45,480 bases of DNA from a virus (taxonomy: Duplodnaviria > Caudoviricetes): IMG/VR virus record IMGVR_UViG_3300044259_000241, positions 1 to 45,480 of that record; one strand, given 5' to 3'. The stretch's first letter is position 1. Every line of letters begins with the position of its first letter. A program made the position numbers and the translations under genes. The notes under the pieces are model-generated. The model saw only the letters and a program-made list of their open reading frames with translations, made no database searches and was not told the origin of the DNA. Positions 24,590 to 45,480 of the stretch are shown in pieces.

Positions 24590-24606
24590 AGTATTAGTTA
24601 GTGTAA

Positions 24607-24795
24607 TTATTCGGGCGGCGAAAGAGGCCCCTGTAAAACTTCGGCTTCGCCGTTGTCGCAGATGTCATCGCCCTGCGTCAAATGCCAGACCCCTGTTATG
24701 GATCGGCCTGTTTCCAGGTCTTCAGTTACACCGTGGGTATAGTAAGCGACCTGCCTGATGCCGTTGTGCTGTATCCAATAAAAACCCTCTTCCAT
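24607..24795 (-). CDS. Small acidic moron protein
   Basis: RBS GGAGGGG; TATAAT at 24822-24827 on the minus strand; flanked by terminators. Confidence 0.75.
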   Translation of the reverse strand: MEEGFYWIQHNGIRQVAYYTHGVTEDLETGRSITGVWHLTQGDDICDNGEAEVLQGPLSPPE

Positions 24796-33892: not shown

Positions 33893-33919
33893 AACAACCT
33901 CCGTAGTGAATATGAATGA

Positions 33920-33990
33920 AGAATAAAACTATGGTTGTATTTAGTCAACAACCATTTTCGTTTGATGGAATAAAACCATGGTTGTACATT
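33920..33990. promoter_or_regulatory. oR region with pR, pRM and three 14-bp operators
   Basis: AAAACTATGGTTGT (33925), ACAACCATTTTCGT (33948), AAAACCATGGTTGT (33972); pR TTGACT-17-TATTCT on minus; pRM TTGATG-17-TACATT on plus. Confidence 0.85.
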
Positions 33991-33996
33991 GCGCGT

Positions 33997-34701
33997 ATGA
34001 AAACGACACTCGCTGAAAGACTGAAGGAAGCCAGGACATTACGAGGACTTACACAAAAGGCTCTCGGAGATCTGGTCGGGGTGAGCCAAGCGGCCATCCA
34101 AAAAATAGAAACAGGAAAAGCCAACCAGACAACGAAGCTGGTTGAGCTGGCTAATGCGTTAAAGGTAAAGCCTGAATGGTTGAGTTCCGGGGAAGGCGCT
34201 ATGCTTCTCACTGGGCAGGATGAAGCCATCCCACCGTCTGATCAGTGGGGTACCGTTGAGCCTTGGGATAATTCAACCCCATTACCTGACGACGAGGTAG
34301 AAGTGCCATTTCTAAAGGATATTGAGCTGGCCTGCGGCGATGGGACATTCCCACGCGAAGACTATAACGGCTACAAACTACGCTTTTCTAAAGCGACATT
34401 GCGTCGTGTTAATGCACACAGAGAAAGCGTCCTGTGCTTCCCTGCCCACGGGAACAGCATGGAGCCAGTCATCCCTGAAGGGACCACGGTAGCTATTAAC
34501 ATCAACGACAAAAAGATCGTGGACGGTAAGGTCTATGCCATTAGTCAGGATGGATGGAACCGCTTAAAAATTCTTTATCGAGTTGGCCCGAACAGGCTGA
34601 GCATTCGTAGCTTCAATCACATCGAGCATCCAGACGAAGAGGCGGATCTTGATAGCGTTCAGGTCATCGGAAGAATGTTTTGGACATCAACAATCTGGTA
34701 G
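33997..34701 (+). CDS. cI: CI repressor (HTH plus S24 peptidase)
   Basis: LTQKALGDLVGVSQAAIQKIETG HTH; ACG cleavage-site region; GNSMEP catalytic Ser; RLK. Confidence 0.95.
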   Translation: MKTTLAERLKEARTLRGLTQKALGDLVGVSQAAIQKIETGKANQTTKLVELANALKVKPEWLSSGEGAMLLTGQDEAIPPSDQWGTVEPWDNSTPLPDDEVEVPFLKDIELACGDGTFPREDYNGYKLRFSKATLRRVNAHRESVLCFPAHGNSMEPVIPEGTTVAININDKKIVDGKVYAISQDGWNRLKILYRVGPNRLSIRSFNHIEHPDEEADLDSVQVIGRMFWTSTIW

Positions 34702-35099: not shown

Positions 35100-35175
35100 A
35101 ATACAACCAAATAAAACCAATACAACCATTAATACAACTATTGTTGTTGACGATAAAACAACTATGGTTTTTAAT
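35100..35175 (+). promoter_or_regulatory. oL/pL
   Basis: Operators ACAACTATTGTTGT (35134) and ACAACTATGGTTTT (35158); TTGACG(35147)-17-TTTAAT(35170). Confidence 0.85.
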
Positions 35176-35239
35176 AAGTCCATCGAAACGAAACATCGAC
35201 AGCTGAGCGAAGTTAGCCAGCGGCGGACAGCAAGTCGCC

Positions 35240-35253
35240 TGCTTCTTTAACAA
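35240..35253 (+). promoter_or_regulatory. boxA-like antitermination element
   Basis: TGCTTCTTTAACAA versus boxA TGCTCTTTAACA, preceded by two hairpins. Confidence 0.6.
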
Positions 35254-35727
35254 ATCAGACTGAGTGACAGGCAAGCCGTAGCGCTCCTGGCAAATAGAAA
35301 TAGCACCCGATTGGATCGAGGTAGTCACTGATTCCGTATGCGTACGGTAGGTGTAGAGGGCCACGCCGCGATGAGCTGATAAGTCACTCAATTTGAGACG
35401 CCTCGATGATGAGGCGCTGAATCAACTTAGAGGAATGATTCCAATGAAGCACTAAAGCGGATAGACCGCGGCAAGTTGTACCAACTGTTCCTGGCTAGCC
35501 GCTGCCACCCTTTTCGACGCGGCGTACGGAATCGGGGGATTTATGTAACAGGTAACGGTGAATGCCGAAAACTCAAGCCATGCCCTTCTTTCCGAAGGGC
35601 TGGAGAGCATCAGCCCTGAGTGCCGTAGCAATTCATTGGGCTTAAAAGTAAAGGCGGCAGATTCGCCGGGCATCACCCGGCAACTACTGGTGAGTGATGT
35701 GCACTGCCAGTGCAGGGAATGATTTGG

Positions 35728-35835
35728 GGTGTGGTGAGTGGTTCTGTATGCGGGTTCAATTCCCGACGGCGAGAGCTGGCCCGAGGTGGGCATAGTCTTA
35801 GCGATGAAGGTTCGACTCCTTCCGCCACACCACCA
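35728..35835 (+). ncRNA. tRNA-like RNA (not a canonical tRNA)
   Basis: GGTGTGGTG/CGCCACACC stem followed by ACCA; T-arm GAAGG-TTCGACT-CCTTC; second T-loop hairpin CGGG-TTCAATT-CCCG. Confidence 0.55.
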
Positions 35836-35911
35836 AAGCATTTCTCCCGCATCAGCGAGTAACGACAGAGGGTAAGAGGATGAAATCGGAACTGACCTTC
35901 CAAGAACATAG

Positions 35912-35933
35912 GCCGCCTAACCAGCGGCTTTTT
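35912..35933 (+). terminator. tL-like terminator
   Basis: GCCGC-CTAACCA-GCGGC-TTTTT. Confidence 0.65.
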
Positions 35934-36054
35934 CATACCTCAGTCGCTTCACCGAGGCGGCTTAGTTATGACAACCGGCGGCCATCCACCGCCCTTAAGC
36001 GAAGAAGTCTTGTATTAACCGTTCCGTTCGCCGCGATAAGGCCAAGAGGAAATC

Positions 36055-36183
36055 ATGGTAAACCAGCAGCAGATCAGAGAGGCCCAGCGGCTCGCGTCGT
36101 TCGCGGTACTCCATCGCAATGCTCCGGCGTGGGAAGAGGCAAAACGCCTTTACGCCGTCGCCATCGGGAGGACTCTTCACTGA
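36055..36183 (+). CDS. Small protein, 42 aa (MVNQQQIREAQRLA...)
   Basis: RBS GAGG; translated by hand; TGATG-coupled to the next gene. Confidence 0.7.
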   Translation: MVNQQQIREAQRLASFAVLHRNAPAWEEAKRLYAVAIGRTLH

Positions 36184-36380
36184 TGGGCACCTTATTCGCA
36201 TTGGTCCTGACCGTGGCAATGACCAACGGTGATTATCAGGATGTCATTCTCGGTGTTTACGACAGCCAGCAGGAATGCAGCCAGGCAGCTACAGAGCAGA
36301 AAGTAACAGCTGAGTGCTGGCCAGTAGAAAGCATCCTCCGCAACGGCGAGTTCCCGGCGAAATCCATCGCGCAGCAGTAA
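36183..36380 (+). CDS. DUF1482/YebW-like protein
   Basis: MGTLFALVLTV...LGVYDSQQEC...ECWPVE. Confidence 0.75.
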   Translation: MGTLFALVLTVAMTNGDYQDVILGVYDSQQECSQAATEQKVTAECWPVESILRNGEFPAKSIAQQ

Positions 36381-39040: not shown

Positions 39041-39193
39041 ATGACTCACGCTCACGACGACATCAGGGTTGGCACACTGTGCCTTCCCTTCATTGGTAAC
39101 GGCTGGCTAATGCCTTGGGGTGAAGTGGTCAGCAATCCCTTAAAGGCGCAGCGGCTCGCTGAGGAATATCGGGAAAGGCAGGAGGCGGCATGA
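39041..39193 (+). CDS. DUF1317 family protein, 50 aa
   Basis: Translated by hand: MTHAHDDIRVG...NPLKAQRLAEE. Confidence 0.75.
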   Translation: MTHAHDDIRVGTLCLPFIGNGWLMPWGEVVSNPLKAQRLAEEYRERQEAA

Positions 39194-39672
39194 CAGATTC
39201 AACAATATTGGACATGTGCTGCGGTTCTCGCATGTTCTGGTTCGATAAGCAGGATGATCGCGCTGTTTTCAGTGATATCCGCGCCGAGCAGCATGAACTT
39301 TGCGACGGCCGCCAGTTAATCATAAGCCCGGACCTTATAGCTGATTTCCGTGCCCTTCCCTTTGCCGACAACACTTTCCCTGTAGTCGTGTTCGATCCGC
39401 CACACCTTGAGCGCGTCGGAGATAACGCGTGGATGGGGAAAAAGTACGGCCGGCTGAACAAAGAAACGTGGCGCGATGATCTGCGTGCCGGCTTCGCAGA
39501 AGCATTTCGGGTGTTGTGGCCACACGGCGTGCTCATCTTCAAATGGAACGAAACGCAGATCCCGGTAAGCAATATTTTGGCGCTGACTGACGAGAAGCCG
39601 GCCATATGGCAACGAACAGGAAAAGCCGACAAAACCCACTGGGTTATTTTTGTGAAAGGCGGCGCGAAATGA
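39190..39672 (+). CDS. SAM-dependent methyltransferase
   Basis: ILDMCCGSRMFW and VFDPPH. Confidence 0.85.
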   Translation: MTDSTILDMCCGSRMFWFDKQDDRAVFSDIRAEQHELCDGRQLIISPDLIADFRALPFADNTFPVVVFDPPHLERVGDNAWMGKKYGRLNKETWRDDLRAGFAEAFRVLWPHGVLIFKWNETQIPVSNILALTDEKPAIWQRTGKADKTHWVIFVKGGAK

Positions 39673-40520
39673 CAGGAAAATACTCTCTTATCTACGCTGA
39701 TCCACCTTGGTTTTACGGTAACACCATCAGTAACGGGGCCGCCGCCGACCACTACTCAACCATGAAGTTAATCGACATCAAGCGCCTGCCGGTGTGGGAG
39801 CTTGCCGCAGAAAACGCGGTGCTGGCGATGTGGTATACCGGCACGCATAACCAGGAGGCTATCGAACTGGCTGAGGCCTGGGGTTTTACCGTTCGCACGA
39901 TGAAAGGATTTACCTGGGTGAAGCTTAACCAGAACGCCGAACTGCGCATCAACAAGGCGCTAGCCGAGGGTGAAGTCAACGACTTTTACGACTTCCTCGA
40001 TCTGCTTAACGCCGAGACGCGCATGAACGGCGGCAACCACACCCGGGCCAATACCGAAGACCTGTTGATTGCCACCCGCGGCGCCGGGCTGGAACGAAAG
40101 CACGCCGGGATTAAGCAGGTGGTATACAGCCCCCTCGGCGCGCACAGCGAAAAGCCGTGGGAAGTACGCCACCGGCTGGAGTTGCTTTACGGCGATGTGC
40201 CGCGCATTGAGCTGTTCAGCCGTAGCGCAGCGCCAGGCTGGCACCACTGGGGAAACGAATGTTCCTCCAGTATAACCCTCACCCCAGGAATGGTTGGTAC
40301 ATCAGAACCGACACCGGAGGGTTATGAAACAGATTGCGTAATTTGGCCGGCAGAGGTCGAGATGGTTTTCAGTGCCGTTGAACATGACGGCGCCATTACT
40401 GAAAAAAATAAGCGCAAGCTCAAATTTCACATCAACCGCATGTGGTTAGAGAAAACACCCATTCCTCAAATAGTAGTGTCCGCGCGGTCGTTAATCGCAA
40501 CAATGGAGAGAAGCTCGTGA
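39669..40520 (+). CDS. MT-A70 family adenine methyltransferase
   Basis: IYADPPW, AWGF, FTWVK, HSEKP, RIELFSR. Confidence 0.9.
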   Translation: MTGKYSLIYADPPWFYGNTISNGAAADHYSTMKLIDIKRLPVWELAAENAVLAMWYTGTHNQEAIELAEAWGFTVRTMKGFTWVKLNQNAELRINKALAEGEVNDFYDFLDLLNAETRMNGGNHTRANTEDLLIATRGAGLERKHAGIKQVVYSPLGAHSEKPWEVRHRLELLYGDVPRIELFSRSAAPGWHHWGNECSSSITLTPGMVGTSEPTPEGYETDCVIWPAEVEMVFSAVEHDGAITEKNKRKLKFHINRMWLEKTPIPQIVVSARSLIATMERSS

Positions 40521-42391
40521 AAGAAATCATCGTTGACAATTTTGCCGGTGGAGGCGGGGCAAGTACGGGTATTGAATTGGCGATTGGCCGCAGCGTGGAC
40601 ATTGCGATTAACCACGACCTGAATGCCGTTGCTATGCACACTACTAATCACCCGGACACTCTGCACTACTGCGAAAGTGTGTTTGATGTTGACCCAGCAA
40701 CAGCGACCGCAAGTAAACCGGTTGGCCTAGCCTGGTTCAGCCCTGACTGCCGACACTTCTCAAAAGCGAAAGGCTCAAAACCGGTTGAGAAAGAGATTCG
40801 CGGATTGGCATGGATCGTCATTCGTTGGGCTCTGTCCGTTCGTCCGCGGGTGATGATGCTGGAGAACGTGGAGGAGTTCAAAACCTGGGGACCGCTGCTG
40901 GCCGAGGAAATGCGCCCTGACCCGGCTCGCGCCGGCGAAACATTCGAAGCTTTCTGCGGAATGCTCTCCTGTGGCATTCCGGCATATCATCCGGCGCTGG
41001 CCGAGTGCTGCGAGTTCTTGGACATTCTGCCGGATAGCCAGCAAGCTCAGCAGTTGATTAATGGTCTGGGCTACAACGTCGATTACCGTGAGATGCGGGC
41101 GTGTGACTATGGCGCGCCGACCATTCGTAAGCGATTCTTCATGATCATGCGCTGCGATGGCGTGCCAGTGAGGTGGCCGGCGGCTACGCACGGAGACCCG
41201 AAGTCGCCAGCGGTACAGGCGGGAAGCCTGTCGCCGTGGCGCACAGCTGCGGAGTGTATCGACTGGTCAATTAGCGCCCCGTCAATCTTTGGTCGGAAGA
41301 AAAAGTTAGCTGAGAACACCCTAAAGCGCATCGCCAGAGGCATCCAACGCTTCGTTCTGGACAATCCGACGCCTTTCATCGTGAAGTGCAACCACACCAC
41401 CACGAAGGGCAAATATGACTGTTTCCGTGGACAATCGCTGGCTGATCCGCTTCAGACCATCACCAAAACTCACGGATACGCGCTCGCCGTTCCGCACCTA
41501 ACAAAGTTCCGAACCGGCGCTACCGGGCAGGAGGTTACCGAACCGTTACCGACGATCACCGCCGGCACGTCGAAACGACCTGGCGGCAATGGGCATGCAT
41601 TGGGTATGGTCGAAGCTGCACTTACACCGTTTATTGCCAGACAGTTCGGCGCCAGCGTCGGTCATACGGTTGACGAGCCGAGCGCTACGGTAACCGCTGG
41701 GGGCGGAGGAAAATCGCAGCTGGTGACGCCGACGCTGATCCAGATGGGATATGGCGAACGCCCAGGCCAGGCGCCGCGGGTTCTGCAACTGGAAAAACCG
41801 CTGGGGACGATTACCGCCGGAGGCGGAAAGTTCGCAATGGTCGCGGCGAATATGGTGAAACACTTCGGCGGGAATTACACCGGGGCTGGCGTTGCGCTGG
41901 ACGAGCCCATTCACACCGTGACCACTACCGATCACCATGCTCTGGTCACCTCCAGCATTATCAAAATGCGCGGTACCAATACCGGCCAGCCGACTGACAC
42001 TCCACTACAAACCGTGACCGCTGGCGGTCAGCATTTTGGTGAAGTTAAAACCACGCTGGCAAATGAGGGATACGACGAACACCGCGCACAGCTTACGGCT
42101 GATTTCCTACGGGAATATTGTGGGGAGGATTGCACCGGCCTTGTTACTGTCGATGGCATCACTTACCGCATCGTAGATATCGGCATGCGAATGCTTCAGC
42201 CCCATGAGTTATATCGGGCGCAGGGTTTCCCTGAGTGGTACATCATCGATAGGGATTACCGCGGCGTGAAGTATGCGAAGGATAAGCAGGTGGCACGCTG
42301 CGGTAATGCTGTTCCGCCTCCGTTCGCTGAAGCTCTGGTAAGGGCAAATTTGCCAGAAATGTGCGTAACAAGAGGATCGGAGGCAGCATGA
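40517..42391 (+). CDS. C5 cytosine DNA methyltransferase
   Basis: DNFAGGGG, SPDC, ENVEEF, PTIRKR, CGNAV; GTGA-coupled start. Confidence 0.92.
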   Translation: MKEIIVDNFAGGGGASTGIELAIGRSVDIAINHDLNAVAMHTTNHPDTLHYCESVFDVDPATATASKPVGLAWFSPDCRHFSKAKGSKPVEKEIRGLAWIVIRWALSVRPRVMMLENVEEFKTWGPLLAEEMRPDPARAGETFEAFCGMLSCGIPAYHPALAECCEFLDILPDSQQAQQLINGLGYNVDYREMRACDYGAPTIRKRFFMIMRCDGVPVRWPAATHGDPKSPAVQAGSLSPWRTAAECIDWSISAPSIFGRKKKLAENTLKRIARGIQRFVLDNPTPFIVKCNHTTTKGKYDCFRGQSLADPLQTITKTHGYALAVPHLTKFRTGATGQEVTEPLPTITAGTSKRPGGNGHALGMVEAALTPFIARQFGASVGHTVDEPSATVTAGGGGKSQLVTPTLIQMGYGERPGQAPRVLQLEKPLGTITAGGGKFAMVAANMVKHFGGNYTGAGVALDEPIHTVTTTDHHALVTSSIIKMRGTNTGQPTDTPLQTVTAGGQHFGEVKTTLANEGYDEHRAQLTADFLREYCGEDCTGLVTVDGITYRIVDIGMRMLQPHELYRAQGFPEWYIIDRDYRGVKYAKDKQVARCGNAVPPPFAEALVRANLPEMCVTRGSEAA

Positions 42392-44260: not shown

Positions 44261-45480
44261 TGGCAGGCTTTCCAACCGGCGTTGAAATTCACAACGGTAA
44301 ATTGAGGATATCGTTCAAATTCAAGAATATTCGCTGCCGGGAAGTTTTACAGGGGTGGGCGGTTAATAATTCCAACATCAAGAAAGCTGGAAATCTTAGA
44401 GCATTAATATGCGCTGAAATTCAGCTGGGAACATTCAAATACGAAGAACGCTTTCCTGAGAGTAAAGCACTCAAGAAGTTTTCGACGCCCAGTAAAAGTG
44501 TCCTAACCTTTCAGGAACTGTGCGATGCATATCATGCAGTGAAAGAGGTGGAAATTAGCCCGGCGACAATGATGATTACGCGATCTGTCAGTACTCTATT
44601 CACGAAGATTATCGGAGGGGACACTTCTCTTGAGGAAATACAGCTGAACGATATGTTGTTATACCGAAAGAAATTGCTTGAAGGGGAATTTAAGGCAAGG
44701 GGTGATGGACAACGTACAGTCAGGACTGTTAACGCATTTATGGGGCAATTATGCCGGATGCTCAGCTTCGCACACCAGAGCAACTACATCCAGCACAAGC
44801 CTTTCGAGAATATTAAAAGTCTGAAGACATCTGAACTGGATCCGGATCCATTGCTGAAAGAAGAATTTCAGGAATTATCAAAGCACTGGGAAGGTCAGCA
44901 TTTAAACCTCTGGACGTTTGCCGTCTATTCCGGTTTACGCCATGGCGAATTGGCAGGTATAGCCTGGGAGGATGTCGATTTAACGACTGGTGAGGTTCAC
45001 GTTAAGCGTACCATGACGCTCACGAAGAAATTTGGTCCGCCAAAGACAAAGGCGGGGATCAGGACGGTGAAGTTGCTAAATCCAGCGCTTGAAGCGTTAA
45101 CAAGGCAATACGAGCTTACAGGTAACAAGGAACCCACAGAGATCGACTTTTACCACCGAGAGCGAGGAAAGGTTGAAAAGCAAAGCCTCAGATTCTGCTT
45201 TGTTCCTAACTATGAAGAAGGGAATGTGAGCAGACATTATTCTCAGAGCACGATTAATCAGACATGGCCAGGGGCTATGCGAAAGTCAGGAGTAAGGTAT
45301 AGAACTCCCTATCACACACGCCATACTTATGCCTGCTGGTTGCTATCGGCTGGAGCAAACCCATCGTTCATTGCAAGTCAGCTGGGGCATAAAAATGCGC
45401 GTATGGTTTACACCGTATATTCAAAATGGATCGTAAAGATGAACGATGACCAAATAGGCATGTTAAACGAGAAAATTTAG
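44260..45480 (+). CDS. int: Tyrosine integrase
   Basis: SGLRHGEL, KT, YHTRHT, LGH...VY catalytic residues; N-terminal arm-binding domain. Confidence 0.95.
   Translation: MAGFPTGVEIHNGKLRISFKFKNIRCREVLQGWAVNNSNIKKAGNLRALICAEIQLGTFKYEERFPESKALKKFSTPSKSVLTFQELCDAYHAVKEVEISPATMMITRSVSTLFTKIIGGDTSLEEIQLNDMLLYRKKLLEGEFKARGDGQRTVRTVNAFMGQLCRMLSFAHQSNYIQHKPFENIKSLKTSELDPDPLLKEEFQELSKHWEGQHLNLWTFAVYSGLRHGELAGIAWEDVDLTTGEVHVKRTMTLTKKFGPPKTKAGIRTVKLLNPALEALTRQYELTGNKEPTEIDFYHRERGKVEKQSLRFCFVPNYEEGNVSRHYSQSTINQTWPGAMRKSGVRYRTPYHTRHTYACWLLSAGANPSFIASQLGHKNARMVYTVYSKWIVKMNDDQIGMLNEKI

Follow-up and report, generated by a model that had tools for sequence, protein, structure and literature searches.

A predicted tRNA-like RNA in an exchangeable slot of a lambdoid early leader, and its likely release by RNase III

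Why does the early leader of a lambdoid phage contain what resembles a tRNA's upper half, and is this a separate RNA or a part of the mRNA that carries it? We addressed this in a stretch of 45,480 nucleotides (the window), a complete virus record with lambdoid gene order. The minus strand carries cI (33916-34701), cro, cII, O, P, Q and the lysis genes, and the plus strand the recombination genes and the integrase. From its sequence we class the phage as phi80/HK639-like, that is, lambda-like. The element sits within a leader of about 700 nt, 3' of a phi80-like pL and before the first early-left gene, which agrees with the original prediction of a place in the early transcript. Positions 35145-35253 are 90% identical to the pL/nutL boxA region of phi80, and a promoter consensus scan gave no call at the pL itself. 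The features of the leader are as follows.

35147-35175, plus strand: pL-type early promoter (-35 at 35147-35152, -10 at 35170-35175, 17-nt spacer), aligned with the annotated phi80 pL
35180-35253, plus strand: conserved, phi80-like 5' leader module with a boxA-like motif at its end (35241-35253)
35715-35727, plus strand: outer stem, 5' arm (fold); predicted RNase III cut C1 between 35727 and 35728, matching the in vivo C1 at Qin 1649454
35728-35736, plus strand: acceptor-like stem, 5' strand, 9 bp (fold); matches lambda from +89 onward
35740-35777, plus strand: predicted long arm with the internal T-arm (35751-35765) (fold)
35779-35791, plus strand: GCCC/GGGC hairpin with a 5-nt loop (probability 1.0)
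35806-35822, plus strand: canonical 5-bp T-arm on the acceptor-like stem (9/5, 14 bp) (fold); 16 of 17 letters identical to the E. coli tyrU T-arm
35823-35835, plus strand: 3' acceptor strand, bulged discriminator A35832 and CCA (fold); predicted cut C2 between 35834 and 35835, matching C2 as mapped in vivo at Qin 1649584 and at Rac 1418258
35833-35848, plus strand: outer stem, 3' arm (fold); the anchor for locating the slot in other phages
35849-35882, plus strand: conserved junction with the ribosome-binding site and ATG (35880) of a variable first-gene slot, matching phi80, CobraSix and HK639
35911-35933, plus strand: tL1-like terminator hairpin, homologous to phi80 tL1A

The cargo gene of the first-gene slot is essentially missing here, as only about 30 nt separate the ATG from the terminator, and no candidate N gene was found in the window. 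Between the 5' module and the element, 35254-35714 is a mosaic of further hairpin modules that are shared piecewise with other phages and have no Rfam match. Within it, a strong ribosome-binding site followed by an immediate start-stop (ATG TAA, 35533-35548) has counterparts in epsilon15 and in one other locus (L043). Elsewhere in the genome, the late leader before the holin gene (24603-24699, minus strand) matches Rfam isrI at 51.1 bits against a cut-off of 45, and three consecutive DNA methyltransferase genes (39190-42391) lie 3' of an exonuclease-Sak4-SSB module.

Most of the anatomy originally proposed was recovered in the predicted fold, with probabilities of 0.9-1.0. The acceptor-like stem (35728-35736/35823-35831) has 9 bp, one of them G-U (pair probability 0.97-1.0), and ACCA follows directly at 35832-35835. 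The T-arm at 35806-35822 stacks on this stem without a gap (0.9), the second, internal T-arm has 4 bp (0.99-1.0), and the GCCC/GGGC hairpin also lies where it had been placed. The flanks, too, were predicted to extend the stem as proposed, through pairs 35723-35727/35833-35837 and 35715-35721/35839-35848, and both the CC and the A of the encoded CCA are base-paired within the outer stem in this precursor. The exception was a GNRA hairpin, CGGC-GAGA-GCTG (35767-35778), which has a probability of only 0.02. A long arm (35740-35747/35769-35777, about 0.87) with the internal T-loop at its tip is favoured over it, at -43.6 versus -40.9 kcal/mol. The fold z-score of the element is -2.86.

A pattern scan for T-arms, defined as GTTCRANNC closed by at least 4 bp, found only these two on both strands of the window. 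As 200 dinucleotide shuffles gave 0.65 T-arms per window, and in none of the 400 shuffled strands did two lie within 100 nt of each other, the pair is not a chance occurrence.

The element does not correspond to a standard RNA class. ARAGORN called no tRNA over it and Rfam gave nothing at the gathering score, as the original prediction expected; the only, weak, matches were to tRNA-Sec (21.4 bits) and tmRNA (13.3 bits). We rejected a canonical tRNA (no ARAGORN call, a 9/5 instead of a 7/5 branch, no anticodon arm), a tRNA-Sec or allo-tRNA (21.4 bits against a cut-off of 47, and a branch of 14 bp, not 12-13), and a tmRNA (no tag reading frame, no G3-U70 pair, an altered GGAC connector). A C4/CI antisense RNA fits poorly as well: it gave no Rfam match, and complementarity of the interior to its own genome is below chance, with one 10-mer against 5.2 expected and none of 11 or 12 nt. 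Similarity to the HK639 putL-like RNA reached a best local score of 22, against a shuffled maximum of 28, which discards a likeness to put antiterminator RNA, and PreS maps elsewhere, between ea10 and ral. A coding explanation was discarded as well, the overlapping open reading frames (35452-35841 on the minus strand and the read-through frame 35880-36380) having no family match over the element.

The arms of the outer stem are homologous, by sequence comparison, in lambda, phi80, P22 and the E. coli Qin prophage. In the lambda N leader they span +84 to +97 and +187 to +202 and enclose a different interior of 109 nt; they consist of five bases and then the G-rich strand from +89, with its complement, a bulged A and CCAAAGC on the opposite side. 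We take this G-rich strand to be the motif boxC, and the lambda cuts to lie at +88/+89 and +197/+198, in agreement with the register predicted here. RNase III cutting in the lambda N leader processes the pL mRNA and controls the translation and stability of N. In Qin the homologous stem is located between dicF and dicB, and this stem region (L338, 1132-1341) scores 34.4 bits against Rfam STnc100 (cut-off 47), a family that may be a relative of the DicF-type slot.

In vivo, rnc-dependent 5' ends have been mapped at Qin 1649454 and 1649584 and at Rac 1418258 (Altuvia et al., PMC6212723). Placed on the sequence, the Qin cuts fall just 5' of the G-rich strand and just 5' of AAA, which corresponds to the junctions 35727 to 35728 and 35834 to 35835 in the window; the single cut mapped in the Rac stem aligns with C2. 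Both the Qin and the Rac stem end in AC, without a CCA-type end. The in vivo rules of that study include a preference for G-C pairs between the cuts and tolerance of a bulge, which gives a 3-nt overhang on one product (PMC6212723). Compared by eye, the window duplex agrees with these rules, having two G-C pairs between the cuts, a 2-nt stagger and a bulge. On position, sequence and geometry, we assign the element's stem to the lambda N-leader-type RNase III sites. Because the Qin positions match, RNase III, rather than RNase P, is the likely source of a 107-nt RNA (35728-35834) ending in ACC. Carried over from the Qin map, the cuts probably fall at C1 and C2 and would give a 5'-phosphate G and a 3' ACC overhang.

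The interior of the stem is hypervariable. Anchor scans of IMG/VR and GTDB returned at least 151 distinct inserts of 58-219 nt, in at least 46 clusters, all within the same stem; lambda's insert falls among the 46 clusters and P22 has its own. Each of three IMG/VR scans gave at least 120 loci (estimated total 240-390), counted as contigs that were partly fetched twice and are not independent. The extraction missed the window's allele and the HK639 type, and adding both gave 48 insert types. For a census of ends, CC was left out of the anchor. Among the phi80-type loci listed (118 usable), a closing stem was called in 92, of which 90 ended in RCC; the remainder comprised 14 that ended in ACCAC, 7 that showed no slot and 5 that ended in CC without a stem call. 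A stem was found in 104 of the 114 usable lambda-type loci listed, of which 63 ended in ACC and 41 otherwise (36 CTC, 4 CCA, 1 TTC). An RCC end is thus common, not required, and partly explained by outer-stem pairing: as the CC belongs to the outer-stem pairs, there is a second reason for it to be conserved, and the CCA is no independent proof of mimicry.

The RNA slot adjoins a highly variable early-gene slot, and the two reassort, such that one insert family precedes 17 different N-terminal sequences, lambda-type N included. Two prophages, of Citrobacter and Pseudocitrobacter (L303, L305), carry two cassettes in tandem within one leader. In the late leader of lambda (about 44857-44953, L586) there is a 9-bp stem-closed module where PDP110P1 (L585, 601-726) has a 9/5 T-arm RNA, which suggests a second slot in the late leader.

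How far do the inserts resemble tRNAs? Of the 48 insert types, 8 carry a canonical 3' T-arm that stacks on their closing stem, and 40 do not. Branch geometry is 9/5 in three of the eight, the window included, and 8/4, 6/5, about 11/5 and 13/4 in others; the HK639 type is the only one that can be drawn as 7/5. The window's allele is the only insert type with two T-arms. The covariation check that the original prediction called for came out positive for the 9/5 frame: in 18 related sequences (the window, one cloverleaf and 16 of the 18 variants of one family, which dominates the set), 99.7% of cells were paired and 5 of 19 pairs had changed on both sides, three of them in the T-stem, a level reached in 0 of 500 shuffles, with the structure drawn from these same sequences. 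The T-stems vary by compensating pairs while the T-loop stays constant.

Two insert types are full cloverleafs, and one of them, the L201 type, has the exact 9-bp stem of the window. Its anticodon position reads CCC, position 33 is a G, and A73 is present; in Hafnia phage Pocitis76 this type is annotated as tRNA-Gly, directly before N. Inside the slot or close to it, full cloverleafs whose acceptor stems have 9 or 6 bp were seen at L201 649-722, L582 708-787, L583 701-775 and L521 370-450. Members of a 134-nt 9/5 sibling family are also found free of the outer stem: next to tRNA-Ile in phage Skate, and within non-coding sequence in PdC23 and PDP110P1. These stem-free copies have a compensated acceptor pair but no encoded NCCA, and they suggest a portable RNA gene, beyond the mere inner half of a cleavage site.

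Copying is not restricted to tRNA. Two insert types copy 16S rRNA 243-282, which we take to be helix 11, with 35/40 and 35/37 identities to E. coli (E = 7e-10 and 2e-12; a reversed control gave 0 matches). They are L057 and its relatives (cluster K0, the commonest phi80-type insert among the matches listed) and L027 1347-1393 (K21). Thirteen insert types (L017, L073, L113 and others) have a D-arm-like loop following the stem, with 5-6 nt complementary to the 3'-arm loop, possibly forming a kissing-loop elbow.

The window's allele is rare. A run index placed it, whole, in three other DNA runs from three studies and in one more sediment run. IMG/VR scans for double T-loops and for T-arms gave no further full copies, the four double-T-loop matches being unrelated tRNA-type loci. 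The allele was not found in GenBank phages, 5426 E. coli genomes, plasmids or a GTDB anchor scan; 401 Enterobacteriaceae-family genomes gave 6 partial matches and no full copy, a metagenome scan gave only 9 chance matches, and the contigs of RNA runs X15 and X16 carried other leader modules and not this allele. Natural changes within it are 35758 A to G, which falls on purine 57 of the internal T-loop and is present in all three runs, 35763 C to T (giving G-U), and 35782 C to T (C-G to U-G in the GCCC/GGGC hairpin, run X3). All three keep pairing or the T-loop consensus (chance p = 0.32), and the change in run X4 lowers the modelled probability of the internal T-arm to 0.13. With 1-2 changes per 108 nt, against 11-19 per about 700 nt in the upstream leader, the allele is not measurably more conserved than its surroundings. 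The T-loops are kept in the three other runs of the allele; across the slot, some alleles lack the CCA. In relatives that share this RNA allele, the ATG is followed by other cargo of 515, 784 or 179 letters, as against about 30 in the window phage.

The outer T-arm closely resembles that of tyrU, and the internal one points to another source. Positions 35736-35770 share 21-27 of 35 identities with the 3' ends of 29 proteobacterial tmRNAs (31 loci examined, 2 not parsed), as against a maximum of 22 and a median of 15 of 35 for 32 of 42 tRNAs. A contig of run X2 with tmRNA-type flanks matches at 31/35, and outside the T-arm 10 of 18 positions equal the tmRNA consensus (p = 0.005, post hoc). Three positions invariant in the 29 tmRNAs are changed in the element, two of them in the GGAC connector. 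In view of these changes, 35736-35770 may plausibly derive from a captured tmRNA end, and it is uncertain that the element would bind SmpB.

Does such a slot yield an RNA? In cells infected with P22, a small RNA upstream of gene 24, P22B, has 96 nt and 642 reads per million (PMC13397905, Table 2). It covers 84 nt of the P22 insert and 12 nt past the predicted C2. RNA from the slot accumulates in P22 infection, and the called ends of P22B do not confirm the predicted cuts.

Several parts of the picture are established: the position after pL, a stem homologous to those of lambda, phi80, P22 and Qin, the dozens of unrelated inserts and the covarying 9/5 frame. With about even confidence, we propose that the N-leader-type stem houses an exchangeable RNA cassette, of which the element is one allele, and that RNase III would excise from this stem a 107-nt mimic of the tRNA top half that would act in trans as a decoy. 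Transcription from pL would produce the early-left leader with the stem and its insert. A double cut by RNase III, by analogy with Qin, would then free 35728-35834 with a 5' G and a 3' ACC, and the same cut would process the pL mRNA, as in lambda N. The encoded last A would depart with the downstream fragment and could be restored by the CCA-adding enzyme. That this enzyme supplies the last A and that the closed ends stabilise the RNA is, on balance, slightly favoured. The 3' end at 35835, where the original prediction would map it, would come about when an ACC end at 35834 is repaired to CCA.

Having a branch of 14 bp and lacking an anticodon arm, the RNA would not decode. As the window's allele has no anticodon arm, anticodon nucleases, originally named as a possible target of the decoy, are an unlikely one. 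Tentatively, the RNA may bind host proteins that read the elbow or the 3' end of tRNA or tmRNA, such as defence enzymes that attack tRNA ends. A broader and somewhat more doubtful proposal is that in the lambdoid slot, lambda's included, RNase III would give a tRNA-type end to any insert, and that the inserts make up a collection of RNAs imitating those of host translation (tRNA bodies, the tmRNA end, 16S helix 11) and serving as decoys against host defences, the window's allele being a tRNA/tmRNA double-elbow decoy.

The main competing explanation is purely cis-acting: the stem would be an RNase III site that controls the first early gene, and the interior a tolerated compact filler, captured from tRNA, tmRNA or rRNA and degraded after cutting. 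It would account for an outer stem that is conserved around a freely varying interior, for RNase III cutting of the Qin and Rac stems without a CCA, and for an allele with no measurable excess of conservation over the leader upstream of it; RNase III binding is also reported to affect regulation of the lambda N mRNA (PMC8708148). Compensating T-stem changes around a constant T-loop, a sibling RNA that retains the 9/5 fold outside the stem, and the retention of the RNA by the window phage although the following gene is essentially gone all speak against it, and we hold it to be a serious but rather unlikely account. Processing by RNase P, the original prediction, is less likely than this, given a CCA that is base-paired in the precursor and a branch of 14 bp. 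Here RNase P would make the 5' end at 35728, and exonucleases would take the 3' end back to the encoded CCA (35835), the route of the P1 C4 and P4 CI RNAs. The G+1, T-arm and RCCA that such a route would use are all present, the Skate sibling adjoins a tRNA gene without an outer stem, and RNase P cuts phage RNAs that include the phi80 M3 RNA and C4 RNA (PMC11143913). The flanks, however, form an N-leader-type stem in which G-1 and G-2 pair with the CC at a probability of 1.0, the branch exceeds the 12 bp of canonical tRNA and the 13 of tRNA-Sec (PMC5389517), and the matching Qin cut at G+1 is RNase III-dependent (PMC6212723), so that we regard this route as improbable. Of the processed tRNA-like RNA first envisaged, a tRNA-top-half mimic that is probably processed out remains, given the covarying 9/5 frame and the sibling cloverleafs, and the RNase P route is not supported.

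Two further readings concern what the RNA does. It could be a tRNA-framed antisense regulator like C4 and CI, whose loops pair with phage mRNAs. A general likeness to these RNAs and the report that DicF, an sRNA acting by base pairing, is processed out of a homologous leader (bioRxiv 10.1101/2023.04.14.536235) are set against the below-chance complementarity to its own genome and the absence of any C4 or isrK match in Rfam, which leaves little room for this reading. Least probable of all, and quite remote, is an interlock of the two T-loops that binds the tRNA elbow, a pairing that the original prediction had brought up. Both T-loops are present and kept in the three other runs, and the change shared by these runs is A to G at purine-57. 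In the known motif, two pentanucleotide T-loops interlock head to tail (PMC4919913), whereas in the predicted secondary structure the element's T-loops lie on separate arms, each apparently a tRNA-type 7-nt loop capping its own hairpin; in addition, the internal T-loop resembles a captured tmRNA end and no other of the 48 insert types has two T-arms.

For a long time the lambda N-leader hairpin has been seen as a site of processing in cis. Should its interior prove to be an exchangeable RNA gene released with tRNA-type ends, each of lambda, P22, phi80 and HK639 would make an early RNA that has been overlooked, and there would be a route to tRNA-like ends through RNase III instead of RNase P. 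A slot that lies beside a variable early-gene slot and takes inserts copying host tRNA, tmRNA and rRNA is a candidate reservoir of RNA anti-defence factors. In the largely open-access literature searched, we found no description of the slot as a tRNA-like RNA cassette.

Among known systems, the lambda pL/N leader hairpin and the Qin dicF-dicB stem are closest to the element, in their position before the first early gene, their homologous arms and the predicted register of the cuts. They are known as cis processing sites, whereas the interior of the element is unrelated to lambda's and has two T-arms, and its product, unlike that of Qin, would carry a CCA-type end. P22B comes from a homologous slot and is seen during infection; its interior is different and has no T-loop, its called ends are off the predicted cuts, and the available part of its source describes it without tRNA likeness or a processing route (PMC13397905). 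Like the element, the P1/P7 C4 and P4 CI RNAs are phage RNAs with a closing stem that are processed by host nucleases. They act by antisense pairing, and CI is also a substrate of RNase P. C4 is an RNase P substrate too (PMC11143913), and the element differs from both in having neither a C4/CI Rfam match nor a complementary target in its own genome. A lengthened acceptor stem is shared with tRNA-Sec and the allo-tRNAs, whose branches are 8/5, 9/4, 8/4 and 9/3 (PMC5389517); the element differs in its 14-bp 9/5 branch and in having no D-arm, anticodon arm or long variable arm. It gave no Rfam match to the tLRNA families RF02924, RF02926 and RF03030. T4 species I and II are phage tRNA-like RNAs which, like the element, combine an acceptor stem with a T-arm and have no usable anticodon arm. 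What sets the element apart from phage tRNA-like RNAs is its apparent place in an RNase III stem of an mRNA leader, as one of dozens of exchangeable alleles.
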